Shown here piece by piece: positions 1 to 49,593 of a DNA stretch of 64,000 bases. The position numbers and the translations under genes are program-made. The stretch covers positions 256,001 to 320,000 of the forward strand of contig BK006946.2 in NCBI GenBank assembly GCA_000146045.2. Direction: 5' to 3'. A model generated the notes under the pieces. It had not been told where the DNA came from, made no database searches, and worked only from the letters and a program-made list of their open reading frames with translations. Position 1 is the first letter of the stretch. Every line of letters begins with the position of its first letter. The stretch is from TPA_inf: Saccharomyces (taxonomy: Eukaryota).

Positions 1-91
1 TATAGAAACTGGTAAGTGCAATAGTACCAATAATGATTATAATTATAATACAAGTATATATATATATCTATATATAGTGGTAAAGTATTCT

Positions 92-2416
92 TTACATGAT
101 GGCACAACGCTGAGATTTATCCGTACCTGCAGAACCACTGTTTTTATGATTCTTAAACCTATTCATCTGGAATTTCCAACGCTTTCTATCCTTGTTAGTG
201 GCATGAGTAGGGTTATCTATGCCGCTTAAAGACTTTAGTAATGTAGGTAAAGGCAAACTTTTGGACCTTTCCACGGCACTCATAGCATTGATGGAACTCT
301 TTATCTTTTTCAACTCATTTTTGGAATTACTTTCATTGTTACCCTTGGAATTAGGTTTGTGAGAATTTTTTGTCTTCAAAGAATGGCTAAAATTCGAGGA
401 AGTCGTATTAGAGTTCGACAGTTGTGTCATTGGATGAGGTTCACTTGATAAAACTGTACTTTCACCTGTTTTAGAGTTATCCAACTCGTTACTATTACTT
501 TTATCGATTTTTGTAACAGAATTATGTCTATTGAATGCCCATTCCCCGATACTGTTTACGGTTCTAATAGAACGATGTGCTGTAGTAACGTTAGATTCCA
601 TTCTAGTTGGTATGTACATTTGTGGGCCTGACTGTTCTGATAAAGAAGCATCGTCACCATCGTCTTCATCGTCTTCATCGTCAATATAGTCGTTGTAACC
701 GTTATTATATGCAGTCGGGAAATATTGTTGCGGGTCGTTAGTTAATGATAACTCAGAATCTAGAGGTTGCTCTTTTGATATTCCTTCCCTATTATCATAA
801 TTGGGATTTTTGAATTCTTCTTCAACCTGTTTGCCGGAGTTTGTCACAATAACCATTGTGTAAAATAAAATTTTTGGAAATGATCTCTTGATATCTAGCA
901 AATCTTGAAGTGTTAGAATTTGTAAATTATTCATTGAAAAATTGGAATCATACAGCAACCAATCATCGGTAACGCTTGCCATTGTAGGTTTATTGTTTGA
1001 CTGTCTAATCGCAGTAAAAATTTCTTTGGTGTCTGGATCCTGAATTAATATAGATTGCAAAACTAGCCTAAAATACCCTAGAGAATCACAAATTGAGATT
1101 GACGGTAGAATGGATAGTACTGAGTAATCGGAAGAAGAAAGATCTTCATCATCATAAACCTCTTCTCCATCGTCCTCTCCTGATCCATACCCTTGGGCGT
1201 CATAGTTATGATGAATTAAATTATCCTCCTCCTCTGGGGTTGTCGAAGTAGTTAAATTGTCTATAGAACTCGTTATACTTGACAATTCAGAGACATAGGT
1301 GGCATTCGTGTGATCGATGTTTTCACGTTTTGGATTACCTCGGCTGCTACTGCTTAAACTGTAGTGGGCACTACTACTATTACTGCTACTACTATAGCTA
1401 GTGTAGCTGACCGAACTTTCCATGCTATAACTTGCTTGATCGATACTCTCGTCACCTAGATCATGTGAGACTCTGCTATAATGATCCTCAACTTCATCCT
1501 GACCACTTTCATCCTCGCGCCTGGCAGTAGTTAAACTCAGGTCTTGTCCGGGATATGTGGATGATACGTCTTCGCCAGCAAAACTATCTATTGACATTAT
1601 CTCGGAATGTGACGGTGTATAGTCTTCATTAGTGTATGATGGAAAAATTTTGGGTAGTCTATTAGGCTTTGAATCTACTGTTCGCGAATGAGAAAAATTT
1701 AGGACTATAGAACTTGTGGCATCCTCTTCATCAACTTCGTTTTCATTATCTTGAGGCGTATCATTATTATTGCTTTGACTATTCACGGATGTAACGTTTA
1801 TATCAACTGTGTCCGGAGATGTCAAAGTCCTCGTATTCGTATTAGTTCGGGTAGCTGTTGAAGTCTGGGTATTTATATTTGACCACTGATCATCCGAAAC
1901 GTTTGATTCTAGCTTCCCGTTTGAAGCTTTTGATGAAGATATTGTGGGTGGTGGTATTGAATTTCTATTGTTATTGTTTAAAGCCTTGGAATTTTTTTGA
2001 ACTTGCCAACTTGTACTCGCAAATTCTAAAAAGGTAGGGTCTTGGAAATTGTTGAGGTTGTCCGTCAATAGGTAATGATTTTCATGATTGTAGCAGTGGG
2101 AGTGAGTTAATTTTGAGATTTGAATGTGTTCTAATTTTTCCAGATGAAAGTAATCTTTGAGGAAGATTTCCAATATGGAGATATCTTCATGAACATTCTC
2201 TGGGATGGAAACTAACAAAATCTTCTTGTTTGGCCTGGCCGAAATATTGTTATCACCATAAAAATGACTATTCAGAAATCTTTTTAACAGAGTGTATTTT
2301 AATTGATTGCCTATAAGTTCTTCAAAATCGCCTAATCTGAGGTTTGTTAAGTACCACGACCACAAACCATTGTCATCATTGTCAAAATAGTCGCCCACTC
2401 TAACGGATTTTTGCAT
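92..2416 (-). CDS. GIS4: GIS4; Ser/Asn-rich CAAX-box protein, 774 aa
   Basis: Full-length ORF in the track. It is low-complexity Ser/Asn/Thr-rich with an acidic [11 protein letters not shown] stretch and a C-terminal CAIM (CaaX) motif. Its position left of the tRNA-Ser and TRM12 matches the chrXIII gene order as I recall it. Confidence 0.88.
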
Positions 2417-3157
2417 TATATTTAAGTAACAGAGTGCTTTTTGATGGTTTTTGTTAACCGTCTTTCGAGCAGTTGAAGGATGAGAGTGAGTGTTAATGAG
2501 GGGTTATTTCTGCAAAACTTCTGCCGATATATTCTGCACTTAGTTCCCGCTGTTGTTCAGCCTTCACGTTCCTTAGCTACACAAGTCAGTTAAATCTGGT
2601 CCTGCCAAAGTGAATAAGTTGAAGATATTTATCTAGCTTGCGATGGAAAAAACTACAATAGGAAAAAAACTAATTAAAAAAAGAAAAAAAAAGAGAAGAA
2701 TTCAATGTTTAGGGATATAAATTCGATATAAAGGTTTAAAGTAAATAAATTTCGTGTATTACTATGCAAGTAATGTTTCTGCCTGCACCGGCTTCGTAGC
2801 TGGTGGAGTGCGATAGCGATGATACTACCTGAAAACACAGAGGAAGGCCGTCAGCCCCGCGCTAGGAACGATGAGGAGAAACCAGTTGGCGAATCGCCAC
2901 ATGCCATTTACGTAAAAGATGCTGTGTAACCTAACAGAAATAATCGATGGTGTGAACTAAAGTCCTAGGATGCACATAAGCAAGCGAAAAAGTGAAAACA
3001 ACATTTCCAGAGCTAAAAAAATGCATTTGCCGATCCGAAATAATCTCAAAACGAAAAAATGATTATGGACGTAAACAAAATTACCGCATTTCGCTCTCCT
3101 ATTATCATAACAAGCATGAGCGCAAAACTTAAAAATCCATCAAGAGGCAAAAAATAA

Positions 3158-3239
3158 CGACAACTGCAGGACTCGAACCTGCGCGGGCAAAGCCCAAAAG
3201 ATTTCTAATCTTTCGCCTTAACCACTCGGCCAAGTTGCC
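3158..3239 (-). tRNA. tS(AGA)M: tRNA-Ser (anticodon AGA), 82 nt with long variable arm
   Basis: The reverse complement reads GGCAACTTGGCCGAGTGGTTAAGGCGAAAGATTAGAAATCTTTTGGGCTTTGCCCGCGCAGGTTCGAGTCCTGCAGTTGTCG. It has a 7-bp acceptor stem (one G-U pair), GTTCGAGTC T-arm, anticodon loop TTAGAAA and a long extra arm typical of type II Ser tRNA. Confidence 0.95.
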
Positions 3240-4220
3240 ATACTAACTTGATTATTTGTGTATTCTGTTTTCTTGTGATTCCTTCTGGTTACATAATTAC
3301 ATTGTCTATATTCATATTTGATTCTAACAGCAGGTAATATTGGTCTATCGGCTACTCGTTCAAAAAATTAAAATCGTTATCAATTATATTCCATAGTATA
3401 GGTTGTTAAAAGATGGAATTAATTAAAGTAGAGTAGTAGAACAGGGATCACAGTGTTATTAGATTTTGGAGCAACTGATGTGTGTGAGTAATATATAAGG
3501 ATGAATCGAATGAAAGTATTATGAGAAAAGGAATCATCGTTGTGTAAAGTTGTTCATTTCGTATTTCTGGGTACTGTGAATGAGATGAACTTGCTGATAA
3601 TCGTTGGCATACTATTATTTGGAACGGTAATATTTTTGCGAATACAAAGTATACTGTAGTTTTTCCCCGAGGATTTACGAACCCACGAGAAGTGATCAAT
3701 ATTTCTACACAGTAGCATTATGATCTCTCTTTATTCGCTTATGTGTCGCCATTCACTACCCTATCATAATTCGGATCCTTGTGTTTCAGCTCCCATTAAG
3801 TTTGACGACCGTTCGTCATTTATTTATATTCTTACACCGTACACGATAATATACTTATGCGAACTCTAGTCGGTCGATGGTGATTAATTTTCATTTCAAT
3901 ATTTACTTATATCGGCGATAAGTCTTAAGCATGGAATTTATAGTCATTCTGTCACCCCTCCGAAACAGAAATGAATTTGTAAATGTATTCACTAAGTTTA
4001 GCCGTTTTAGACATTTGAATGTCGTTCGTCATCAGCGCGGCCAATATTGTTTACATGAAGAAAATGTTGTTAATATAGGCACTCTATTTGGTTTCATTAT
4101 GAGAAGTATCTTGCTGCTTGATGTCTTCGCACTTTTTTTTTCCAGATTTTTCAGGTGATGAGGTGGAGCTGGAGGATTTTACAATATTACTCAAATAATT
4201 TGTAGACAACGTTAGCGTGA

Positions 4221-5609
4221 ATGAGTGACGAAACCATGCCTGTAGAATTTTTAGTTAGTGATAAAAGACTGTTGAAAACCATAAAAGTTAAACTGGAAAC
4301 CAACGGCCTTTTTGTTACTCCTATCTATTCCGATAATGATAACAAAGTTATAAAATCTTCTATTGAGGATCTCAATCATCCATTGGCTGTCGAAATTAAC
4401 AATATAGCCGGTGTGAAGGCACGATTCCATGAAAGTGGTAACTTGGAACGTAGTGAAGGACATTTGAAACACCAAAGTAACAGCATTACGGAATTTACGA
4501 AGAGCTTTTTAAAAGATCATGGGCTTGCTAATGACAAGATATTTTTATCTCATTTATTAGATCATTTACCTCTAAAATATACAATATATCCACCAGTTGT
4601 ATTGTTCAATAATTCTACAGTGAGATCGTTTAATCACCCAATCTGGCAAAAAGCATTCCAACTGAAACTCTTCGATCCAAATGAGTATTATCGTGAGCTG
4701 CTATGTTTCCTTTCGCCCGGCAAACCAAGTAAAGGCACGAGTCTTCATCCTAACAATCGACTACTGACTCATCTGGCCATAAATAACCCTATCACAGAGG
4801 CAGATGTATTGCGAAGACCGTTCAATATCCAACCGCTTTATGGCAAATTGATTGATGACAGTATTTTGGATGATAACGATAATACGTTATGGGAAAATCC
4901 CAGTCAAGAACAACTAAACTCAAGCATATGGTGTAAGGTCATACAAAATGGTGTAACACAAATCTGGTCACCCGTTTTTACCATGTTTAGTAGAGGGAAT
5001 ATCAAGGAGAAGAAAAGAGTTTTGACTACTTTCCCAGATATTTGCAATAATGATGTGGTCGATTTATACGCAGGAATAGGTTACTTCACTTTTAGCTACT
5101 TAACAAAGGGCGCTAGGACACTTTTTGCATTTGAACTAAACCCTTGGAGTGTAGAAGGGTTAAAGCGCGGCTTAAAGGCAAACGGATTCAATAAATCTGG
5201 GAACTGCCACGTTTTCCAAGAATCAAATGAAATGTGCGTTCAAAGGCTTACTGAATTCTTATCTCAGAATCCCGGATTTCGGTTACGTATTAGGCATATT
5301 AATTTAGGTCTCCTGCCTTCAAGCAAACAAGGGTGGCCATTGGCCATCAAATTAATTTACTTACAAGGAGCTTCTTTGGAAAAAGTGACAATGCATATAC
5401 ATGAAAATGTACACATAGATGCAATTGAGGATGGAAGTTTCGAAAAGAATGTCATTGTAGAACTCGACGCTATTAATGAGTCAATTGCATTAATTAGAAA
5501 CCGTGGCATCAAACTTCAGTTTGTGAGATCTAAGCTTGAACGCATAAAAACTTTTGCACCAGATATTTGGCATGTATGCGTTGATGTCGACGTTATAGTA
5601 AGTACTTAA
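4221..5609 (+). CDS. TRM12: TRM12/TYW2; tRNA wybutosine synthesis transferase, 462 aa
   Basis: Full ORF. It carries a class-I methyltransferase-like SAM-binding motif (VVDLYAGIGYFTFSY), and its position between tS(AGA) and GLO1 fits the recalled gene order. Confidence 0.85.
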   Translation: MSDETMPVEFLVSDKRLLKTIKVKLETNGLFVTPIYSDNDNKVIKSSIEDLNHPLAVEINNIAGVKARFHESGNLERSEGHLKHQSNSITEFTKSFLKDHGLANDKIFLSHLLDHLPLKYTIYPPVVLFNNSTVRSFNHPIWQKAFQLKLFDPNEYYRELLCFLSPGKPSKGTSLHPNNRLLTHLAINNPITEADVLRRPFNIQPLYGKLIDDSILDDNDNTLWENPSQEQLNSSIWCKVIQNGVTQIWSPVFTMFSRGNIKEKKRVLTTFPDICNNDVVDLYAGIGYFTFSYLTKGARTLFAFELNPWSVEGLKRGLKANGFNKSGNCHVFQESNEMCVQRLTEFLSQNPGFRLRIRHINLGLLPSSKQGWPLAIKLIYLQGASLEKVTMHIHENVHIDAIEDGSFEKNVIVELDAINESIALIRNRGIKLQFVRSKLERIKTFAPDIWHVCVDVDVIVST

Positions 5610-5704
5610 ATACAAAATATAAATAATAATTAGTGTATGAAAAGTCAACAAGAATGGTCATTATTGTAAAAAAAAAATACTAACCTCCTATTCATTTCAA
5701 CTTT

Positions 5705-6685
5705 TTAGGCAATCAAACCATGAGGAACGACTTCAATGGAATAACCATCAGGATCCTTCAAAAAGGCAATATTCTTCATTCTGCCTTGGTTAAATTTAGG
5801 AGACCATTGGATCTTATCGCCGTATTTCACTTCAATTTCTTTACAAAGGGCGCCAGCGTCATCACAACTTATGCAGATGTGACCATAACCCTGGGGCTCT
5901 GAGTTACCGTTATGATAGTGGAAGTTTGGATCATTCTCAGTTCCCCAATTATGAGTTAACTCCAACACACTTTCACATGAAAAAACGCTGTCGGTCTTTG
6001 GAACGCCATAACCAAGAAAGTATAACGTAAATTTTGCACTTTCGTGCTCACTAGTTCTTAATAATTTCATGCCCAACACATTCTGGTAGAATTCTAAAGA
6101 CCGGGTTGGGTTTTTAATACGAATCATGGTATGATTGAACTTGTTACCTACTGAGCCCTTTGGGTATTCCTGACCCTCTCTAGAATATGTGATCAACTCA
6201 ATCCAGTATCCATCAGGGCCTAAAGCAAACGCAATGTCCTTCTGTCTTCCTTCAGAGAGTCTCTTCTTGAATTTGACACCCTGAGATTCTAGCTCTTCGC
6301 AGGTTTTATTGATATCGGATACAGAAAAACAGATGTGCCCAAATCCACGATGAGGTTCCTCATTCCCGTTGTTGATCTTGTAGTCTGGGTTTTTTTCAGT
6401 ACCCCAATTGTGAGTTAGTTCTAAGACACCGTGTGCGCTAAAAACATCAGGCTCTCCATTCTTATTTTTGGGTATGTCGTCTTTTGGAAAGCTTAAAAAG
6501 TACAAGCTAAATTTTGCTTCTTCAAAATCCTTTCTGCTTAATAGCTTCATACCGAAGTGTTCGGTGTAGAACTTAACGGTCCTTGCTGGATCCTTGACTC
6601 TTAAACATGTGTGATTAAGCAGAAGGGTTGGATCATTCGAGGCTTTCTCAATCTGAATTGGATAGCGTGTACTATCAGTGGACAT
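5705..6685 (-). CDS. GLO1: GLO1; glyoxalase I (lactoylglutathione lyase), 326 aa
   Basis: The ORF encodes two tandem VOC/glyoxalase repeats with near-identical motifs (VLELTHNWGTE...GFGHICFS and VLELTHNWGTEND...GYGHICIS). I start it at the MSTDSTRYPIQ methionine, 14 codons inside the track ORF, which gives 326 aa. Confidence 0.88.
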   Translation of the reverse strand: MSTDSTRYPIQIEKASNDPTLLLNHTCLRVKDPARTVKFYTEHFGMKLLSRKDFEEAKFSLYFLSFPKDDIPKNKNGEPDVFSAHGVLELTHNWGTEKNPDYKINNGNEEPHRGFGHICFSVSDINKTCEELESQGVKFKKRLSEGRQKDIAFALGPDGYWIELITYSREGQEYPKGSVGNKFNHTMIRIKNPTRSLEFYQNVLGMKLLRTSEHESAKFTLYFLGYGVPKTDSVFSCESVLELTHNWGTENDPNFHYHNGNSEPQGYGHICISCDDAGALCKEIEVKYGDKIQWSPKFNQGRMKNIAFLKDPDGYSIEVVPHGLIA

Positions 6686-7476
6686 TGTTAGTTTGTAGCT
6701 GGTGGCGTATCTGGTCTGAAGTGTCAAAAAAAAGGCATGGAAATGTTATTCCGATTTTTTTTCTCCCTATTTATAAACGTCACTAACTAGAAATACGGGA
6801 TATCAACTACTACGAGAGAGGGACATTCTAGTATCAAAGAAACTTACTATGACGCAGTTTAGGATCCCTGTGGTGACTACGTATCCAGGTCTACTACTCC
6901 ATCGTAAAGCCCCTTGTTTATTCAGTGTCCAGATCATATGCGGGATGTGTATTTTGTGCTGAGTGGAAAAATAAGATCATATGCTCAAGAATAAAGGGTT
7001 AAAGGGTATGGAAATTTCAGTTCTCCCTGGCTCAAGAACATTGTCAGTATTCCTATAACTGAAGCTGAGTGGTACTAATGCACCGAGATGCAAAGTCCGA
7101 ACCACCCCCACCCCCCTCTTTACCTATTTTTTATATTTTGTGATAAAGGGATAACTCGTCTTGCCTTCACTGCGCTTCGATTCTACTTTAGCTAAACTAA
7201 GCGTTACTTTGTTTGAGAATCTCTCAGCCGTTAAATCAACGTACTTGTATACTAAACAGTATATTCACGTGATAACTTTGCCTTACACCTATGATATAGA
7301 TAAATATATACATATATATGAGTGTGTGTGCATTGCGTCACTAAACTATGTTTAATATGACAGAAGGTTTTCGTTTAATTTTGCCGCTACCCGAAAATTT
7401 TGGCAGTTGCAATTTATAACTAAAGGAACCACCTTATTGTAAATTCCTCAACGGAAAAGCTATGGCTTAGCTAGGG

Positions 7477-34800: not shown

Positions 34801-34872
34801 TCCGATATAGTGTAACGGCTATCACATCACGCTTTCACCGTGGAGACCGGGGTTCGACTCCCCGTAGCGGAG
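34801..34872 (+). tRNA. tE(UUC)M: tRNA-Glu (anticodon UUC), 72 nt; carries an A5-G68 acceptor-stem mismatch
   Basis: Sequence TCCGATATAGTGTAACGGCTATCACATCACGCTTTCACCGTGGAGACCGGGGTTCGACTCCCCGTAGCGGAG, with anticodon loop CTTTCAC and T-arm GGTTCGACTCC. It lies 262 bp upstream of CLU1. Confidence 0.92.
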
Positions 34873-39178: not shown

Positions 39179-40738
39179 TCAAAGAGTAATTAATTTTTCA
39201 CAAATCATCATAAATGCAGGTATCAAAATATTGTCATTAAGCACACTATTACCTTCTAGCACTCCACTCAGTGTACAAAGGGTAAGCAATTGTAAAGTAG
39301 TTAGGTGGTTAAAAATTGCAGCTTTATCAAAACGTAACAATACCAAACAAACGATAAAACTCGTTACTATAAACGCAAGAGTTCCCTCTAAAGTTTTTTG
39401 TGTACCTTTCCAACGAATGCGGCCATACCTTTTACCAATAATAGATGCTAAGGAATCACCAATTCCCAATCCTATTAGACCCATTGGAGAGTTATTCATT
39501 AATAAAGGTGTTGATATTCCGAAGAGTAAATAAAGGTATGATATGATCAATGGCCCGCTGTGGTCCCTATCATCAGCAAACCTTCTTAGTTGTAATTCAA
39601 TAGCAGATCCTAACGGCGGTAGGTTTTGAAATCTTATGTACTCAATTGATAAGAAGACTGGTATTGTTCCGGACAATGCAATTTTCACAAAGTTTGAATC
39701 CATTTGGAATGACGGTATTATGAGTAAGAAAATGATGAAATGCCACAATTTTCGGGAGGTGTTCAACGATAGACTGTCCTTCTCGATCAATATACTTGGT
39801 ATGGACAGTATAAGAATTGAAGACCAAGCAAACAAAATCTTTTGACGAATAGTAGACTCTAAGATATATTTTACCAGCCAAAGTAGCGGATTTTCACCGT
39901 CTTCTAAATGAATGAAGGTATTGGCAAAAAGTGGAAGCCCGATGGCAAAGGATATTGACAGCATAAACGGTTTAAAGTGCATTACCTTTTTGAGCACATA
40001 GTTAATTGAAATTATTGTTGTGAGAGCAAGGATAATGCCCTTCAAAATTCTAAAATGTACTGTGCCAGCCTCTGAAACGTACAGAATATTGGTTAATAGG
40101 ATACTAAAAAGATTAGAGTCGATATTATCTAAACTTTTCAATTGCCCAATATACTTCAAAATTAACGACAGTAAAGAATTTATTACTATGCTAATAATAT
40201 TCTTTAACCTGTCACCAGCCTCAAAATTAAAAAATATGAGGCAGAGCTGTAAAATGATCACTACCAACTGAGTTCGCCATCTATATGAATTTAATACCGA
40301 AAGGATCAAAATAGTATTTATCACCGTAGATGATGTATCGAACAACAACGAAACCATAAACGGTAAATATAAACTGTAAATGGTATCGAACTTGGGTAGG
40401 CTTTTGTAACCATGTTGCCAATATTTTGTGAATATCAGACCAACCATTATCAAACACACCACAAAGACATTTACAAAGATTTGTTTATAAGATATATCAG
40501 CGGTAACAATGGACCACGGCTGAAGCCTTTCAACACAGTAAAAAAAAGTGCCCAACAATATAACAGTTTGAACAAAATTCGAATAAAAGCACTCAAAATC
40601 TCGAGAATTCCCGCCCACATCAAATTTACGAGTCCTCATATTGATTTTGCAGATCTCCTCAGTTGGCATTTGGCTTCCCTCAGTTTTCTGGGTTAGTTTA
40701 ATTGTGGTAAAGGAAGCATGAGGTATTATAGCGACCAT
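39179..40738 (-). CDS. SEC59: SEC59; dolichol kinase, polytopic ER membrane protein, 519 aa
   Basis: Many transmembrane helices, with a C-terminal CTP-binding-like region (GIGDSLASIIGKRYGRIRW). Confidence 0.88.
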   Translation of the reverse strand: MVAIIPHASFTTIKLTQKTEGSQMPTEEICKINMRTRKFDVGGNSRDFECFYSNFVQTVILLGTFFYCVERLQPWSIVTADISYKQIFVNVFVVCLIMVGLIFTKYWQHGYKSLPKFDTIYSLYLPFMVSLLFDTSSTVINTILILSVLNSYRWRTQLVVIILQLCLIFFNFEAGDRLKNIISIVINSLLSLILKYIGQLKSLDNIDSNLFSILLTNILYVSEAGTVHFRILKGIILALTTIISINYVLKKVMHFKPFMLSISFAIGLPLFANTFIHLEDGENPLLWLVKYILESTIRQKILFAWSSILILSIPSILIEKDSLSLNTSRKLWHFIIFLLIIPSFQMDSNFVKIALSGTIPVFLSIEYIRFQNLPPLGSAIELQLRRFADDRDHSGPLIISYLYLLFGISTPLLMNNSPMGLIGLGIGDSLASIIGKRYGRIRWKGTQKTLEGTLAFIVTSFIVCLVLLRFDKAAIFNHLTTLQLLTLCTLSGVLEGNSVLNDNILIPAFMMICEKLITL

Positions 40739-41030
40739 ATAGGCAATGAACAGAATAACGACAGTTTATTGCCTCGAAAGGAGTCTGATTTACTAGCTAA
40801 ATTCTAATATTTGGCTTACTACAAACTCTATCTTTCATAGAATACGTCCTTCGATACCATTTTCACCATCTTGACTAACAACGTGTACAACTCTTTTGAA
40901 AATTACGTGCCTGAAAACCCAACCATTGCGGACAGCCCTCAATAACGTATCTTAGCATTACCCGCACACCCATACATCTAGAACTTTTTTCATTTCTGAA
41001 AATTTTTTTTTCTTCTAGGATTACTTCGGG

Positions 41031-41038
41031 TATAAATA
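41031..41038 (+). promoter_or_regulatory. TATA box (TATAAATA), likely promoter of the snR78-72 polycistronic precursor
   Basis: ggTATAAATAagagacg lies about 240 bp upstream of the first snoRNA of the cluster. Confidence 0.5.
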
Positions 41039-41276
41039 AGAGACGCAGAAATGGTTATTGGCAATTAATGCTTCCTCTCTTTAATAAGTTACAATATTAG
41101 AATCCTATGATTTCCATCACAAAGATCAATACAAAAGAAATATTCAGATGAGTGGGAGCTATGAAAGGCTGAGAGAGAAATTGAATCCATAAAACGTTTT
41201 TTTCCGTGTTCTTTTTTTCTTCTTTATCAAAGTTAGTTTTTCAGATATGTCTTTTGTCATTATCACAGGCTAATTA

Positions 41277-41361
41277 TTCCCTTGATGACCAAAATAAATT
41301 TTTACAAACTAGAGTTTCTGAATCTTTTGTGATTAGAACGTTTATTCTTATTTCTGAGGTT
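41277..41361 (+). ncRNA. SNR78: box C/D snoRNA, first of cluster (snR78)
   Basis: C box TGATGA at 41283-41288 and D box CTGA at 41354-41357. Internal D'-like (tttCTGAatc) and C'-like (tGTGATtag) boxes are present. It is flanked by the inverted repeat gctaatta ... taattagc (terminal stem). Length about 85 nt. Confidence 0.6.
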
Positions 41362-41502
41362 TTTAATTAGCAATAAAGAAGAAAAAACTGAAAGGAAAAG
41401 TCTAAATAGAAATACAGTAGTATTTCTTCAATTTCTCTGCTCTCCTTTCATTTACCACACCCATTTCAATTTTCTTTTTATTCCATATTTATTCAAAGGT
41501 GT

Positions 41503-41594
41503 TTGTTCATATGATGATTATAACAAAAACAAAAGCTGGAATTACTGGCTGAACGAGTATATGTTGATACGTTTTTGCACTATCCTGACCTAGC
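41503..41594 (+). ncRNA. SNR77: box C/D snoRNA snR77 (guide for 18S rRNA Um578)
   Basis: C box ATGATGA at 41511-41517 and D box CTGA at 41586-41589. Flanking inverted repeat ggtgtttg ... caaacacc. The 11-nt guide GCTGGAATTAC (41535-41545) upstream of the D' box CTGA (41549-41552) is complementary to the conserved 18S segment GUAAUUCCAGC. The fifth nucleotide upstream of D' pairs with the U of GGUAAUU. Confidence 0.8.
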
Positions 41595-41721
41595 AAACAC
41601 CTTTAAAATAAATACTAGAAAGTTGACACATTTCCATAAATTGGAAGAATACATTTAAGCTTAGAAAACAGTAGTTTTTTAGTGCTATTCTTCCGTAGAT
41701 TGATGTTTTCGATCTATTTGA

Positions 41722-41834
41722 TACAATGGAAATGAGGATCCACAGCACTGGGCACTGAGGGGGAAACAAATATCCTTTCAAATGAGTGACAATGCTTTAG
41801 CGGGCCTAGAAAACCCGCGCAACTGATCCATTGT
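41722..41834 (+). ncRNA. SNR76: box C/D snoRNA, third of cluster (snR76); non-canonical C box
   Basis: A 7-bp terminal stem (caatgga at 41724-41730 pairing with tccattg after the D box). C-like box AATGAGGA at 41731-41738, D' CTGA at 41755-41758, C' ATGAGTGA at about 41782-41789, and D box CTGA at 41824-41827. Length about 110 nt. Confidence 0.5.
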
Positions 41835-41914
41835 AAGTTTTTCTGAGGGCTAACAGAATTTTCTATAGGGAAGAATGGATTTTTTTCTCATTTTCGTATA
41901 ATTATGTGAATTGG

Positions 41915-42003
41915 TTTTTATGATGAGATATTTATAGATGACGAGTCTGATCATTCGTGAAGACACAACTATTAAAATTACCATTCATGCCTTTCTGAAG
42001 CTG
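41915..42003 (+). ncRNA. SNR75: box C/D snoRNA, fourth of cluster (snR75)
   Basis: C box ATGATGA at 41921-41927, D' CTGA at 41948-41951, C'-like GTGAAGA, and D box CTGA at 41996-41999. Length about 88 nt. Confidence 0.65.
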
Positions 42004-42067
42004 TTTACATTATTCTTTTCGATTAGCAAAGAATTTGGAAATAGAAAAAAATCGACAGATAACTAGT

Positions 42068-42188
42068 TCATCAGTTGATGTGTCTGTATTGCTTCCATGT
42101 TTTTTAAAGAAAATTTCTACCTTAGAGACGTCAATGCTGCAGAAGATGAAACAAATTACTCAAATAGACAAGCATATGTCTGATCTTC
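42068..42188 (+). ncRNA. SNR74: box C/D snoRNA snR74 (guide for 18S rRNA Am28)
   Basis: D box CTGA at 42180-42183, immediately preceded by the guide AGACAAGCATATG, which is complementary to the 18S 5' region CAUAUGCUUGUCU. The fifth nucleotide upstream of the D box pairs with A28. A C-like box TTGATGTG lies at 42075-42082. The exact 5' end is uncertain. Confidence 0.75.
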
Positions 42189-42305
42189 ATGATTGAAAAG
42201 AGCAATTAGTGTCTGATGCAATTTAAACTAGAAAATTTATCTGAGAGAGATGAGAGATCGTACAAACTGTTTCAAGGTTTTTAACTTTTCTCCAATTTCA
42301 AAAAT

Positions 42306-42411
42306 TGTTTATGATGATTTCCACATTTCACGACGGTCAACTGCGTTTTTCGAATGTTTATCGATTAACTTTGATGATATTTCGCCTGTGACAGGGCGTG
42401 GTACTGAGCTT
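42306..42411 (+). ncRNA. SNR73: box C/D snoRNA, sixth of cluster (snR73)
   Basis: C box ATGATGA at 42311-42317, C' TTGATGA at about 42371-42377, and D box CTGA at 42404-42407. Length about 106 nt. Confidence 0.7.
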
Positions 42412-42548
42412 TAATATTTTTAGCAAATTTAGAAATTGGGTCAAGCGAACCATTGTAATGCTGACTATTTGGACGACTCTAATCTCTTCAATATATTTGA
42501 GTTCAAATATATTAACTTGAGTAAATTTTCTCTTGCGTTAATTATAAC

Positions 42549-42647
42549 TAATTGTGATGTGATGACAACTTCTTGAGCTATATATTTTCTTGAGAACATC
42601 AATGAAGAAAACGTCTCATCAAATGATTTGCACGTCAGTCTGATCAC
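42549..42647 (+). ncRNA. SNR72: box C/D snoRNA, seventh of cluster (snR72)
   Basis: C box GTGATGTGATGA at 42554-42565 and D box CTGA at 42640-42643. Length about 98 nt. Confidence 0.7.
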
Positions 42648-42867
42648 AAGCCATATAAAATTCTTTAAGTATTTTATCCATTCTACCTTTTTCATCTGTT
42701 AGTGATCGATTAAAGCAACACCCAGACATTACATGGCCCATATGGCAAAAATTTTCATCTCATCTACCTCATCACTGTGTGCATTTAGTGTATGAATGAC
42801 TACTTTAAGCAATTTAACCAGTATATACGTATAAAGAGGTCAAGTGTACGGATAACCCAAAGGAAAC

Positions 42868-44427
42868 ATGCCTTCCGAATCATCCGTCTCTATCTACAAG
42901 CTTGATCAGTTGGAGTATCAGTACCATTATTTGACAAAATCATTACAGAAGTTTGAACCAAGATATCCAAAAACTGCCAAATTATACAATTGTATAGGTA
43001 AAAAGAACAAAAAGAAAATTGAAAAACTGTTAAACTCTTTAGAGTTGAAAACTTTGGACAAAGAACTAGATGAAAGTTACTCAAAGTTACTCAATAATAA
43101 GATTCACTATTACGAGACGCATTTATCAAAATGTATAAAAGAACAAATTCAGAAAATATCCAAAAAAAATTCTAGTAAAGTGAAGGATGCTCAAAAAAAT
43201 AAATCACCCTCTATAGATATTGAAAAGATGCTTGCTACGCAGTTGTCATTAGATGATTTAGCACTCTTCATGACAAGATTTAGGCTGATCAAAATCTTAC
43301 ACCAGAGGATCAAACAAAAAAGCAAAAAGATTGAAGGTGATACGAATAATAAAACTTGGTTGAATAACAATGATTATAGTGGTTATATCAATGATAAGAC
43401 AAGTAAGTGGAACCCAAGCAATATATGGAATGAAGTTATTACGAAGCTGCCAAGTTGTGAAAAGTTAAACGCACTAATTGGTCAAAGTAAAATCGTTCAA
43501 AATCTAACCGAATCATTCGATTTGAGTATTTGTCTCATATTTGGATTTGATGTAAGCGCTATGAAAGCAAAGAAGTATGGAGCAAGGGAGAAGACGGCCA
43601 ATGCTAATCAGACGCACTCCAACATTGACTATGACACCGATGACGGCAATGAAAAGAATGCCATCGATAGCAAATCTAATGCGATCGGCGCACAAACTCA
43701 AAGCAATAAAGAAACAACGTCCGACAATGAGGATCTATTGATAAAGGAATACGAGGGAATGCTAGGCAGTTCAGGAGATGAAGGGGAAGGCGGCGGATAC
43801 TTGAACCCTAATATCAATTACAATGAAGTAACAGATGAAGAACCTAGCGAAGCGTCATCCGATGAGGATGACAGTGACGAACGCTTCAGCGACTCTGAAG
43901 AGAATGAACCAAGGAGAAAAAAACCAAAATTGCATAATTTACCTGAACTAATGGCTGGTTATTACAGTGGAAATGACACTGAAGAGGAAAGCGATGAAGA
44001 CAACAAAAATGTTAAGGGAAAGAAGAAAAAGAGAGACACAGCAGAAGACCGTACGGCCAGAGAGCAGATGTCAAACGAGCCAAAGAGGAAAAACAGACGT
44101 GGGCAAAGGGCAAGAAGAAAGATTTGGGAAAAAAAATACGGCTCACAAGCCAAGCACGTTCAAAGGGAATTGGAAAAGGAAATGGAAGATAGAAAGCAGA
44201 GGCAAATCGAGTACGAAGCAAGAGTAGCTAAGCGTGAAGCTAAAGCAGCATCATTAGAGGCCTCTAGGAGTAGGGAACGCGAAGACAGACGTACTGAAAC
44301 GAACAATAAGAAAGAAAAAGAAAGTGCATCCACTGGAGAAGAACATCCTTCTTGGATTGCAAAAAGATTAGCTGAAGAAAAATTACAAAAAGCTAAATTT
44401 GAAGGTAAGAAGATCAAATTTGATTGA
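42868..44427 (+). CDS. BUD22: BUD22; nucleolar protein required for 18S rRNA/40S biogenesis, 519 aa
   Basis: Highly charged, Lys/Glu/Ser-rich protein with acidic Ser stretches (SDEDDSDERFSDSEENE) and a basic coiled-coil C-terminus. Confidence 0.82.
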   Translation: MPSESSVSIYKLDQLEYQYHYLTKSLQKFEPRYPKTAKLYNCIGKKNKKKIEKLLNSLELKTLDKELDESYSKLLNNKIHYYETHLSKCIKEQIQKISKKNSSKVKDAQKNKSPSIDIEKMLATQLSLDDLALFMTRFRLIKILHQRIKQKSKKIEGDTNNKTWLNNNDYSGYINDKTSKWNPSNIWNEVITKLPSCEKLNALIGQSKIVQNLTESFDLSICLIFGFDVSAMKAKKYGAREKTANANQTHSNIDYDTDDGNEKNAIDSKSNAIGAQTQSNKETTSDNEDLLIKEYEGMLGSSGDEGEGGGYLNPNINYNEVTDEEPSEASSDEDDSDERFSDSEENEPRRKKPKLHNLPELMAGYYSGNDTEEESDEDNKNVKGKKKKRDTAEDRTAREQMSNEPKRKNRRGQRARRKIWEKKYGSQAKHVQRELEKEMEDRKQRQIEYEARVAKREAKAASLEASRSREREDRRTETNNKKEKESASTGEEHPSWIAKRLAEEKLQKAKFEGKKIKFD

Positions 44428-47235: not shown

Positions 47236-49593
47236 CTATTTTTCTTGTTTTTTTGTATCATCAGCAGCAATTTCTTCGTTGGAGACATCGCCAGCTCCAT
47301 CAACTTGTGATTTGGATGACTCTGACTCCTTGACAGGTTCTGCTTCACTAGGTTCGTTCGGTTGTGTTGCTTCATCGCTTGTACTTGTTTTTATTTTGTC
47401 AGTATCCGTCGAAGTCAATGCGGAGATTGGTAATTGACTAGATCGTGGCTCCTTTAATGTTTGATTATCTGGTACAGTATTCCCACTGTCTGCTTCCTTA
47501 GACCATTTGGAATGTGATGCCGATTCAGATTCCACTCTTGGAAGGGTGATTCCTGTATGGATACTTCCCACATTTGATTCAGATGATTGATTTGTGTTTG
47601 TTGTAGTTGGAGAAGGTGTCAAAGGCTTTGAATCTGCAGGTGTAATGCCTAATGTACTTGCCGAATTCATTGTGGCGTTGCGTGGATACGATAAGGGTGA
47701 AGCTATGTTGCCCATCAGTTGTTGTTTCATCGGCATTGTTGCCGAAAGGGTCTGTAGGTTAGTTATAGTATGTCCTTCTAGTTGGTTAGAGTTAGGCATT
47801 GTGCATTTTTTCAAGGGCTTTTCACCCGCAGCGATTGTACTTACAGCTGGTATAGAATTATTGGGTATAATTTTGTTGTTCAAATTCATTGAGGAGTATG
47901 TCAGCTGAGCAGCAGATATATTTGAAGGACCATTAGGATTTTGATAGTTGTTAATAGGTTGATAATAGGTACGCGGACTGATGGATTTAATACCAGTGCT
48001 ACTGCTACTACTACTGCTATCATTGCTTGGATTATTTTGTTTCAATACGCTCTGAATATCCCTGATGAACAAGGGATAAAGATAGTCAGCAATTTTTTCT
48101 CTTTGTGCTATTGCTAGGGCACGCTCAAACGGTATCCAGACACCCTTCAAATGCATGGAACCAATCTTCACCACATGCCTGATTTTTTCCGCTTTTAGAA
48201 TACCATCTCTTCTACCTCTTGTCATCTTAGTTACATTCAGAAGTTTGGTACCATTAACCATATCATTATCTGCTCTTCTTACCACTGAAATACCGTTAGC
48301 TTCTACCTGATAACATAGCGTTTTTTCATCCTCCCACATTGTTGTTGTTACTCTTGGCCTTATTATACTTGCCGAAGTGCCGCTGGTGTTACTGCCTGTG
48401 GCATTGGTAGTGGCGATTAAGGGCATCGGGTGCCTTATGGTAGTTGTTTGGAAAGAATTCATGGTTTTAGCCATTGAGTCATACTGTTGATCTGACACTC
48501 CGTGCCTATTTGCAGTTAAATAAGTTTCTTGATCAGTAGAGGGTTTAACTGGTGGAGTTATAGAATTTCCATCATACAACGGGCTCACCTGTTGTTGTTG
48601 CTGAGGCGGTAGCAAACCCACTTGCGGAAGATTGTAGCTTAAAGGTCCATTTTGGCTGGTTGGACCTTGAGTTGGCGTTGTTAATGATCTTGGAGGAATT
48701 GGAGAATGCGAGTTTGGAATTGACGAAGTCTTGTGAAAACCGGGGTATTGGTAGGTGGAAGGTTGTGGATAGTTTGACATTGGAGGCTGCTGAGCTAAGG
48801 ACGAGATACTATTACTATTGCGACTAGTGCGATTAGAATTGGGAGACATAGAGCCACTGGACGAATCAGAAGGTGGTCCAGATTTACTGAACTTTGAAAA
48901 TGCATTACCTATCTTTGGTGGTTGGGCCGGATACGTTTGAGCTTGTAATTGTTGTTGCTGCTGGTGTTGTTGCTGTTGTTCAAAGGTTGAGTAGGTTTTT
49001 TCCAAATTGGGGTTTTGGACTTGATTACTGGTTACAGATGGTGTTGCACCGTTAGTGGTTCCATCGCCGTTTGCAGGATAATAATAATACGCTTGTGGAT
49101 ACGAATATGCCATTGATTGTTGGGCTTGCATTTGGGGAAAATAATAGTAGTATGGTACATTGTTACTGATATTAGTACTGTTATTGCTTTTTTTGGTGGT
49201 GATTGCAGAACCATTCGGTAACGCAGTTGCAGTAGCGTTGGAAGGAACACCTACAGACGTGGAAGGTGGATTGGAAGCATTTGAGTCAGAACCGCTACTC
49301 TGAAAGGATTCTTGAACTTGATACATCTGAGGCTGGGATTGCAGTTGCTGTTGAGACTGGGATTGCGGCTGCTGATAATATTGCGGGTACGGCCACTGTT
49401 CAGGAACTACGTATTGGTAGGATACGGGCATCAGAGGTTGAACGCTCTGGCCGAGATATTGTTGTTGTTGCTGCTGCTGTTGGGTGGACTGGCCAATAGT
49501 ACTTTCGCTATTGCTCACGGCACTCATATTTGATTCCTGGCGCATGCGGTTGGACTTGATATCATTCGTATTGATTGGGTTACCGATGGGCAT
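47236..49593 (-). CDS. SOK2: SOK2; APSES-family (KilA-N) transcription factor with poly-Gln tracts, 785 aa
   Basis: It has an APSES DNA-binding domain ([20 protein letters not shown] ... [18 protein letters not shown]) and several poly-Q runs (QQQQQQQQ and [10 protein letters not shown]). It is preceded by a long 5' region of about 1.9 kb. Confidence 0.92.

Follow-up and report, generated by a model that had tools for sequence, protein, structure and literature searches.

What does the DNA between SEC59 and BUD22 encode, and how would its products be separated from one another? In the window analysed here (the whole 64 kb stretch), the ORFs on either side of the interval are identical to S288C Sec59p and Bud22p, which places the window on S. 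cerevisiae chromosome XIII and bears out the flanks named in the first-pass annotation. Between them lies a single compound feature:

41278-42650, plus strand: array of seven box C/D snoRNA units between SEC59 and BUD22.

The seven plus-strand units are placed by Rfam, and the span given for them earlier, 41277-42647, agrees within 1-3 nt. Their proposed order, snR78-77-76-75-74-73-72, follows from the Rfam family matches together with target sites equal to the assignments in PMC8307265. Primers published for cloning a functional snR72-snR78 cluster match 40714-40735 and 42836-42856, and we found no evidence contradicting the identification. We are thus practically certain that this is the SNR78-SNR72 locus of S. 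cerevisiae, one Pol II unit with seven tandem box C/D snoRNAs. With the same flanks, seven identities, order, sites and cloning primers as that cluster (fungal 'snoRNA cluster I'), the array is the locus itself, more than a relative. It is already known, and nothing in its identification is new: the polycistronic box C/D snoRNA cluster SNR78-SNR72 of S. cerevisiae was reportedly described by Qu et al. (1999, Mol Cell Biol 19:1144), and we take the locus to be fully annotated and its seven targets to be textbook rRNA modifications. The case is of value for calibration, as a reading from sequence only was enough to identify a genuine non-coding RNA array, to order its members and to assign two of its target sites.

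Our computation covers family membership and boxes, guides with their predicted sites, stems and spacer hairpins, conservation, and the lack of coding signal; co-transcription, dependence on Rnt1/Rat1, loss of the seven methylations upon deletion and protein binding are taken from the literature. The units are 82-104 nt long, with start-to-start spacings of 229, 220, 191, 220, 169 and 244 nt, and six of the seven reach the Rfam gathering score. The exception is snR74, for which no family reached that score and the sole match was SNORD27, below threshold.

41278-41359, plus strand: snR78 (Rfam RF01176, 88.5 bits); C box UUGAUGA 41282-41288, D' box CUGA 41318-41321, D box CUGA 41354-41357.
41507-41590, plus strand: snR77 (Rfam RF01181, 100.8 bits); C box AUGAUGA 41511-41517, D' box 41549-41552, D box 41585-41588.
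41497-41507 with 41594-41604, plus strand: external stem of snR77, 11-13 bp, covarying across genera.
41727-41830, plus strand: snR76 (Rfam RF01209, 100.6 bits); C box AUGAGGA 41732-41738, D' box 41755-41758, D box 41823-41826; 8-bp terminal stem ACAAUGGA/UCCAUUGU.
41918-42000, plus strand: snR75 (Rfam RF01185, 78.1 bits); C box AUGAUGA 41920-41926, D' box 41947-41950, D box 41995-41998.
42138-42220, plus strand: snR74 (SNORD27 match, 35.9 bits against a gathering score of 52, E = 5e-4); C box AAGAUGA 42143-42149, D' box 42180-42183, D box 42213-42216; terminal UGCA/UGCA stem.
42307-42409, plus strand: snR73 (Rfam RF01207, 118.9 bits); C box AUGAUGA 42311-42317, D' box CUGC 42341-42344, C' box UGAUGA 42372-42377, D box 42404-42407.
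42551-42650, plus strand: snR72 (Rfam RF00343, snoZ122, 66.4 bits); C box GUGAUGA 42559-42565, D box 42640-42643; 7-bp terminal stem UUGUGAU/AUCACAA.

All seven units carry the claimed CUGA D box near the 3' end. The C box is canonical RUGAUGA in four of them (AUGAUGA in snR77, snR75 and snR73, GUGAUGA in snR72) and deviates once in each of the other three. The degenerate box AUGAGGA had been correctly recognized in snR76, where nine species have G, C or A, and never U, at position 5; degeneracy is not unique to this unit, as snR74 (AAGAUGA) and snR78 (UUGAUGA) also have it. The deviations of snR76 and snR74 recur in related genera, and UUGAUGA in snR78 is confined to S. cerevisiae and Kazachstania, with CUGAUGA or GUGAUGA elsewhere. 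The inverted repeats noticed around several units are real and covary between genera: terminal or external stems are clear for snR78, snR77, snR76, snR75 and snR72, short for snR74 (UGCA/UGCA), and for snR73 weak in Saccharomyces and strong in Kazachstania, Lachancea and K. lactis. In eight of the nine species, 200 shuffles yielded no fold as good as the external stem of snR77.

To which rRNA nucleotides do these units point? Yeast references were used for both subunits. An Rfam search of L010 1-9500 gave no SSU match, though the 18S 3' end is present there, and for this reason the 18S was taken from L001 (3001-4800, 1800 nt; identical copy in L007), with the 25S from L010 (3900-7295, 3396 nt). 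Perfect antisense guides of 11-14 nt, ending 0-3 nt from the box, are present in all seven units, so that the expectation of at least 10 nt of complementarity to 18S or 25S rRNA holds throughout the array.

41305-41315, plus strand: snR78 guide, 11 nt against 25S 2419-2429; fifth nucleotide at U2421, 25S-Um2421.
41534-41545, plus strand: snR77 guide, 12 nt perfect against 18S 577-588, 18S-Um578.
41744-41754, plus strand: snR76 guide, 11 nt against 25S 2193-2203, 25S-Cm2197.
41935-41945, plus strand: snR75 guide against 25S 2285-2295, 25S-Gm2288.
41981-41990, plus strand: snR75 accessory pairing element, 10 nt against 25S 2307-2316.
42166-42178, plus strand: snR74 guide, 13 nt perfect against 18S 25-37, 18S-Am28.
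42328-42338, plus strand: snR73 guide, 11 nt (13 nt with one G-U) against 25S 2957-2967, 25S-Cm2959.
42625-42638, plus strand: snR72 guide, upstream of the terminal D box, 14 nt against 25S 873-886, 25S-Am876.

By the fifth-nucleotide rule the sites are, in array order, 25S-U2421, 18S-U578, 25S-C2197, 25S-G2288, 18S-A28, 25S-C2959 and 25S-A876, and the snoRNA-site table of PMC8307265 lists the same seven for snR78-snR72. The earlier assignment of snR77 to Um578 stands, with U578 paired to the fifth guide nucleotide before D', and its guide length of 11 nt does not, the perfect pairing extending over 12 nt and over 14 nt if one G-U is allowed; the 13-nt guide of snR74 to Am28 was right as given, and orthologues of snR74 with the same guide occur in nine of nine species. 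The assignment of snR73 to C2959 is obtained only if its D' box begins at 42341, a box that is non-consensus yet conserved (PMC3116282). The same study reports that the C'/D' guide of snR72 is inactive, that the extra base-pairing element of snR75 raises methylation 4-5-fold experimentally, that cells deleted for the cluster lack methylation at L2288 and L2197 and regain it with a plasmid copy, and it presents CRAC protein-binding data for the snoRNAs (PMC3116282).

The guide complementarity of the array is well beyond chance. The 64 kb contain 451 CUGA motifs, counting both strands, and rRNA antisense of at least 11 nt ends 0-3 nt upstream of just seven of them. Six of these seven lie in the array. 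The seventh, at 49289-49303, was rejected as a chance occurrence, being antisense within a 785-aa ORF and lacking a C box; by our own rough estimate, about two guide-like matches per window would be expected by chance. In a single shuffled unit, 11 nt of antisense arises in ~10% of trials and 13 nt in <1%.

Conservation follows the same units. The array order is kept in eight other Saccharomycetaceae with orientation fixed across genera; neither Rfam nor a guide search detected snR72 downstream of snR73 in the loci of Torulaspora and Lachancea. Invariant columns make up 83-97% of the snoRNA bodies vs 48-59% of the spacers. That the interval instead encodes small proteins from short ORFs, with the RNA features incidental, is an explanation to which we give almost no credence. 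Two antisense ORFs (41590-41781 and 42465-42695) and three sense ORFs (41206-41370, 42035-42196 and 42250-42414) were considered, each of them open for 53-76 codons in S. cerevisiae. None of the five has a Pfam match or is intact in four sister species: the antisense ORFs lose their start codons and acquire internal stops in all four, mostly with a frame shift too, and the sense ORFs are without a start codon, out of frame, or both. Substitutions in the antisense ORFs show no preference among the three codon positions (45/48/48 and 67/66/62), no gene is called within the interval in the eight other species, and conservation tracks the snoRNA boundaries rather than the short ORFs. The sequence-only reading had rightly set aside the two antisense ORFs overlapping the RNAs as artefacts.

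Are the seven snoRNAs made as one transcript? The candidate promoter elements ahead of snR78, together with the outer parts of the presumed transcript, are as follows:

40958-40964, plus strand: Reb1-like TTACCCG, putative promoter motif.
40967-40977, plus strand: Rap1-like CACCCATACAT, putative promoter motif directly after the Reb1-like motif.
41031-41038, plus strand: TATAAATA, the sole TATA-like element between SEC59 and snR78.
41213-41277, plus strand: conserved portion of the 5' leader.
42651-42867, plus strand: trailer, from snR72 to the BUD22 start codon.

The pattern CACCCRYACAY occurs once in the 64 kb vs 0.05 expected; TTACCCG occurs seven times vs 3.5 expected and is therefore not significant alone. 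The Reb1/Rap1-like block is mostly invariant across five Saccharomyces species, and its resemblance to the consensus motifs of Reb1 and Rap1 suggests that those factors may bind it. TATAAATA sits within a 14-nt block invariant in the same number of Saccharomyces species and is probably the promoter TATA. Yeast snoRNAs are mostly monocistronic (PMC10557570), and the spacers, at 81-147 nt and with some conserved islands, could be thought to leave room for seven separate genes side by side, each served by a promoter and a terminator of its own. This arrangement is most improbable in our assessment: the one TATA-like element and the one Rap1/Reb1-like block both lie upstream of snR78, the conserved islands of four spacers are AGNN hairpins, i.e., processing signals rather than promoter elements, order and orientation are fixed across genera, and a common precursor is described in the literature (PMC5033589, PMC4330371). 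The elements upstream of snR78 thus point to a single promoter, from which one Pol II transcript with the seven tandem snoRNAs would be produced.

At the 3' end, the trailer must contain both the end of this unit and the BUD22 promoter. It is the least conserved stretch of the interval, with 30% invariant columns, and a search of 42651-42867 gave no GUAA/G and one UCUU, with Nrd1/Nab3 motifs not enriched and no terminator found; read-through into BUD22 receives no mention in PMC4330371. A scan of the interval for bacterial-type signals (8 promoter-like matches vs 9.4 expected, 0 terminators) is uninformative because the interval is a yeast Pol II unit.

Within a common transcript, each snoRNA could also be intronic, with a spliced non-coding gene as host and release by splicing and debranching; Candida species and N. 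crassa have their orthologous cluster I arranged in this way (PMC5033589, PMC3596301). Candida and Neurospora share the snoRNA families and largely the order (PMC5033589, PMC3596301), but there the snoRNAs are intronic and released by splicing, whereas the yeast array lacks splice signals and has AGNN spacer hairpins. A single GUAAGU, at 41833, would suit an intron, yet it is not conserved (GCAAG in three sister species), 41050-42867 contains neither GUAUGU nor UACUAAC, almost none of these occur in eight related loci, and de-intronization, the loss of these introns, is described for Saccharomyces and relatives (PMC3596301). We consider splicing release from the S. cerevisiae array even less credible than independent genes or small proteins, and continue with the unspliced polycistronic precursor.

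How would individual snoRNAs be released from that precursor? The literature describes a single precursor, Rnt1 cleavage within spacers and trimming by Rat1/Xrn1 (PMC5033589, PMC4330371, PMC10557570), and reviews state that Rnt1 cuts between every snoRNA of the array. In these papers' summaries of Qu et al. 1999, loss of Rnt1 reportedly lets the precursor build up at the expense of mature snoRNAs, with 5' ends dependent on Rat1/Xrn1. The first-pass annotation had suggested folding the spacers in search of Rnt1 AGNN stems; these are present in four of the six (78|77, 77|76, 75|74 and 73|72), at positions conserved across genera, and our scans gave none in the leader, 76|75 or 74|73, in S. cerevisiae and in most relatives.

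41408-41427, plus strand: AGUA-capped hairpin in spacer 78|77, loop 41416-41419, 8 contiguous pairs; candidate Rnt1 site.
41643-41694, plus strand: AGUA-capped helix of ~20 bp in spacer 77|76, loop 41670-41673; candidate Rnt1 site.
42055-42087, plus strand: AGUU-capped hairpin in spacer 75|74, loop 42073-42076; weaker candidate Rnt1 site.
42490-42513, plus strand: AGUU-capped hairpin in spacer 73|72, loop 42500-42503, 10 contiguous pairs; candidate Rnt1 site.

The hairpins were discriminated by the count of contiguous closing pairs: three with at least eight such pairs occur in the array vs 0.02 expected, the fourth being weaker. Energy-ranked constrained folding of all AGNN sequences in the window gave array counts close to background at every threshold, a ranking that does not discriminate because the stems are AU-rich. 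In spacer 78|77, an AGNN hairpin is found in nine of nine species with differing stem sequences, and spacer 77|76 folds with z = -3.06 and, over five species, with a consensus of -21.6 kcal/mol and one compensatory pair in the helix. Saccharomyces species keep the 73|72 hairpin through G-U and compensatory changes, and Torulaspora, Lachancea and K. lactis have an equivalent AGNN hairpin 3' of snR73. The weaker 75|74 hairpin consists of CAUC/GAUG at the loop, an asymmetric internal loop and a lower ACAGA/UCUGU stem; it is absent from the unconstrained MFE fold, five Saccharomyces species share its catcAGTTgatg without change, and AGNN hairpins of 5-10 bp occur in this spacer in four other genera as well.

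As the most likely route from precursor to modified rRNA, RNase III Rnt1 would recognize the AGNN-capped spacer hairpins and release individual snoRNAs, whose ends would be trimmed by Rat1/Xrn1 (5'-3') and the exosome (3'-5') until the bound snoRNP stops digestion. The terminal or external stem would join the C and D boxes into a kink-turn for assembly with Snu13, Nop56, Nop58 and Nop1 (fibrillarin), the 11-14 nt antisense element directly 5' of D' (5' of D in snR72) would pair with pre-rRNA, and Nop1 would methylate the 2'-OH of the nucleotide that pairs with guide position 5, counted upstream from the box. The resulting methylations are 25S-Um2421, 18S-Um578, 25S-Cm2197, 25S-Gm2288, 18S-Am28, 25S-Cm2959 and 25S-Am876.

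One narrow detail of processing concerns cleavage at the leader and at the two spacers that lack an AGNN hairpin. SNR78 is reported to be uncapped, with a NET-seq peak at an Rnt1 site within its 5' extension (PMC5934358 supplement). In the MFE and centroid folds and as a duplex, leader positions 41213-41227 can pair with 41374-41388 over 15 bp, enclosing snR78, as can GCUAAUUA (41269-41276) with UAAUUAGC (41365-41372); the predicted long-range helix around snR78 may have a function. We see a small chance that spacers 76|75 and 74|73 and the 5' leader bypass canonical AGNN-hairpin recognition. Cuts there could use non-canonical Rnt1 substrates, e.g., the conserved 15-bp helix 41213-41227/41374-41388, or, by analogy with what is reported for U18, could depend on snoRNP-assisted recruitment of Rnt1. 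A different endonuclease could act as well, and in that event snR76-75 and snR74-73 would pass through dicistronic intermediates. Qu et al. 1999 or Ghazal et al. 2005 may already have described how these parts are processed.

Other Rnt1-processed yeast polycistrons, namely snR190-U14, snR41-70-51, snR57-55-61 and snR67-53, work alike: a single Pol II promoter precedes tandem snoRNAs, and AGNN-capped spacer hairpins are cut by Rnt1 before exonuclease trimming (PMC10557570, PMC5934358). The SNR78-SNR72 array differs from these in having two spacers and a leader without a canonical AGNN hairpin in our scans, and it is the longest, with seven members. Two of its RNAs also have relatives further afield: snR74 matches the model of human SNORD27 (U27) over its full length, though below the gathering score, and guides the equivalent 18S site (yeast A28), and snR72 lies above the family gathering score of plant snoRNA Z122. 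The yeast RNAs come from a polycistron, not from host-gene introns.

The array of seven box C/D snoRNA units on the plus strand, within 41278-42650 and with a start-to-start spacing of 169-244 nt, is the already known SNR78-SNR72 polycistronic snoRNA locus, reportedly described by Qu et al. in 1999; the locus itself is not new. The flanking ORFs at 39179-40738 (minus) and 42868-44427 (plus) are identical, residue for residue, to Sec59p (dolichol kinase) and Bud22p (NP_013727.1, also with a Pfam BUD22 match) of S. cerevisiae S288C, which places the window on S. cerevisiae chromosome XIII. We scanned the whole window with Rfam at gathering thresholds and in a second, permissive scan. For the guides, yeast rDNA was taken from metagenome contigs via the 18S/ITS1 junction pattern, with L001:3001-4800 (1800 nt; identical copy in L007) as the 18S reference and L010:3900-7295 (3396 nt; Rfam limits 3903-7295) as the 25S reference. 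Contig L010 has an 18S 3' end at 3143 but no SSU upstream of it by Rfam (1-3143) and no canonical 18S 5' end there, which probably reflects an assembly artefact or a variant repeat; L010 was left out as an 18S source. A second rDNA repeat on this contig begins at 10491. For each unit, the longest perfect antisense match was determined, and the methylated nucleotide was taken as the partner of the fifth position upstream of the box.

Units of the array, with Rfam matches and rRNA guides
41278-41359, plus strand: snR78, Rfam, 88.5 bits; guide 41305-41315 pairs with 25S 2419-2429, predicted site U2421
41507-41590, plus strand: snR77, Rfam, 100.8 bits; guide 41534-41545 pairs with 18S 577-588, predicted site U578
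41727-41830, plus strand: snR76, Rfam, 100.6 bits; guide 41744-41754 pairs with 25S 2193-2203, predicted site C2197
41918-42000, plus strand: snR75, Rfam, 78.1 bits; guide 41935-41945 pairs with 25S 2285-2295, predicted site G2288
42138-42220, plus strand: fifth unit (snR74), full-length SNORD27/U27 match in the permissive scan only, 35.9 bits (gathering score 52), E = 5e-4; guide 42166-42178 pairs with 18S 25-37, predicted site A28
42307-42409, plus strand: snR73, Rfam, 118.9 bits; guide 42328-42338 pairs with 25S 2957-2967, no CUGA after the guide
42551-42650, plus strand: seventh unit, Rfam Z122 family, 66.4 bits, identified as snR72 because of its array position and its target 25S-A876; guide 42625-42638 pairs with 25S 873-886, predicted site A876

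The predicted sites equal the published assignments in all seven units (Am28/snR74, Um578/snR77, Am876/snR72, Cm2197/snR76, Gm2288/snR75, Um2421/snR78 and Cm2959/snR73; PMC8307265), with snR73 directed to C2959 by the fifth-position rule if CUGC at 42341-42344 serves as its D' box. Van Nues et al. 2011 independently describe the D' box of this snoRNA as conserved and non-consensus (PMC3116282). The guide precedes the D' box in six units; only in snR72 does it precede the terminal D box. The first-pass annotation had proposed seven units with Um578 (snR77) and Am28 (snR74) as targets, and checking of all guides by the fifth-position rule; Rfam matches, guides against real rRNA and the flanking genes confirm the array, pairing with real 18S and the published assignments recover both targets, and this interpretation is supported with minor refinements only. 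The 18S complementarity claimed for snR77 stands, at 12 perfectly paired nt (14 nt if one G-U pair is allowed) and not 11 nt.

Since about 10% of shuffled units reach 11 nt of rRNA complementarity (12 nt, about 2.5%; 13 nt, <1% of trials), a bare 11-mer is weak evidence alone, and the specificity of the guide matches comes from their position relative to the box. The two strands of the whole window contain 451 CUGA motifs; rRNA antisense of 11 nt or more ends 0-3 nt before only seven of them, and the array holds six of these seven. The sole guide-like match outside it, at 49289-49303 (plus), has at least 11 nt of rRNA antisense that end 1 nt upstream of the CUGA at 49300. It was judged a chance match, since it is without a C box and falls within a 785-aa ORF on the opposite strand (47236-49593, minus).

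Orthologous loci, found via Bud22 homologues in four other Saccharomyces species and in Kazachstania africana, Torulaspora globosa, Lachancea thermotolerans and Kluyveromyces lactis, all (8/8) consist of SEC59 (minus), a 2.0-2.8 kb gap without a called gene, and BUD22 (plus). Rfam recovers snR78-77-76-75 and snR73 in an unchanged order in each of the eight, followed by snR72 in six. Between snR75 and snR73, every one of these loci also has a snR74 orthologue with the same guide. Neither Rfam nor a guide search found snR72 between snR73 and BUD22 in T. globosa (L016) or L. thermotolerans (L017), where an AGNN hairpin still follows snR73 (loops at 4692 and 4466 of the respective loci); in these two species snR72 may have relocated elsewhere, and such relocation is reported in the literature for some other yeasts. 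In the five-species Saccharomyces alignment, invariant columns make up 83-97% of snoRNA bodies, 48-59% of spacers and 30-39% of flanks. Covariation between genera is seen in the helices on either side of the units, most clearly at snR77, where 11-17 bp form in 8 of 9 species with a different sequence per genus and no shuffle folds as well. That the short ORFs across the array might encode proteins is contradicted by the lack of any Pfam match and of any intact copy in sister species; the two antisense ones (41590-41781 and 42465-42695), which had been regarded as artefacts, also lack codon-position bias, and that view holds.

The degenerate snR76 C box noted earlier, AUGAGGA, is borne out by the sequence; across nine species, G, C or A but never U occupies position 5 of this box. 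It is not the sole deviant: snR78 has UUGAUGA, and snR74 (42143-42149) has AAGAUGA, with A instead of U at position 2, in Saccharomyces, Kazachstania and Torulaspora, AGGAUGA in Lachancea, and the canonical GUGAUGA only in K. lactis. In the C/D kink-turn, C-box position 5 sits in a U-U pair beside the sheared G-A pairs, and the bulge contains position 2; on this basis, the deviations at both positions would be expected to be tolerated. The deviant C box may be the reason why snR74 misses the Rfam gathering thresholds.

Spacer folding for AGNN stems, proposed in the first-pass annotation, gave hairpins between snR78 and snR77, snR77 and snR76, snR75 and snR74 (weaker), and snR73 and snR72, and none between snR76 and snR75 or snR74 and snR73. 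In three spacers, AGNN tetraloops with 8-10 contiguous closing pairs (loops at 41416, 41670 and 42500) all appear in the MFE folds, where the density in the rest of the window predicts 0.02 in the array interval. The snR77-snR76 hairpin extends into a conserved helix of ~20 bp; the weaker snR75-snR74 hairpin (AGUU, 42073) has a loop-closing stem that does not vary within Saccharomyces, and its counterparts in the other genera are AGNN hairpins of 5-10 bp. In all four spacers, AGNN hairpins recur with different stem sequences across genera, in line with published work in which Rnt1 cuts stem-loops in the spacers and the ends are trimmed by Rat1/Xrn1 and the exosome (PMC5033589, PMC10557570, PMC4330371). 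The snR76-snR75 (41831-41917) and snR74-snR73 (42221-42306) spacers are the two shortest; no AGNN-capped hairpin was found there in S. cerevisiae or most of the eight related species, K. africana having candidates in both, and the consensus structures are weak (-3.4 and -5.7 kcal/mol, respectively). A second conserved 9-bp hairpin between snR77 and snR76 (41695-41717, GUAGAUUGA/UCGAUCUAU, loop UGUUU) directly follows the AGUA hairpin, shortly before the terminal stem of snR76, and shows one compensatory and several one-sided changes in five Saccharomyces species.

No canonical AGNN hairpin was found in the snR78 leader. SNR78 is reported to lack a cap and to show a NET-seq peak where an Rnt1 site lies within the 5' extension (PMC5934358 supplement). 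Two predicted helices enclose snR78, a 15-bp long-range helix (41213-41227 with 41374-41388) and an 8-bp external stem, GCUAAUUA/UAAUUAGC (41269-41276 with 41365-41372), and the arms of both are invariant in five Saccharomyces species.

Upstream of the array, three elements lie within conserved blocks.

Upstream elements
40958: Reb1-like TTACCCG, adjoining the Rap1-like motif
40967: Rap1-like CACCCATACAT, matched nowhere else in the 64 kb (0.05 expected)
41031-41038: TATAAATA, conserved, ~55 nt downstream of the Reb1/Rap1-like block (40958-40977)

TTACCCG and CACCCATACAT are putative Reb1 and Rap1 sites by their resemblance to consensus sequences. The block at 40958-40977 together with 41031-41038 is the likely promoter from which the whole array is transcribed. 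Separate promoters in front of internal units find no support: only one TATA and one motif block are present, and what is conserved as islands within the spacers consists of hairpins. Hosting in introns, the arrangement of this cluster in Candida and Neurospora (PMC5033589, PMC3596301), is excluded for S. cerevisiae because GUAUGU and UACUAAC are absent from the locus. No terminator was located in the 217 nt that separate snR72 from the BUD22 ATG (42651-42867); this trailer is poorly conserved and shows no Nrd1/Nab3 motif enrichment (GUAA/GUAG absent, one UCUU only); its few conserved islands (e.g., 42720-42732 and 42770-42779) may be part of the BUD22 promoter.

The primers with which van Nues et al. 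cloned the "snR72-snR78 gene cluster" match exactly at 40714-40735 (plus) and 42836-42856 (minus), and the cloned fragment restored L2288 and L2197 methylation in a cluster-deletion strain (PMC3116282). A second snR75 match, 41981-41990 against 25S 2307-2316, is explained as the "extra base-pairing" element of that study, whose mutation lowered methylation 4-5-fold (PMC3116282). Elsewhere in the window, Rfam identifies two tRNA genes, at 34801-34872 (plus) and 3158-3239 (minus); the latter spans 82 nt and, when aligned to the tRNA model, has additional sequence in the region of the variable arm.
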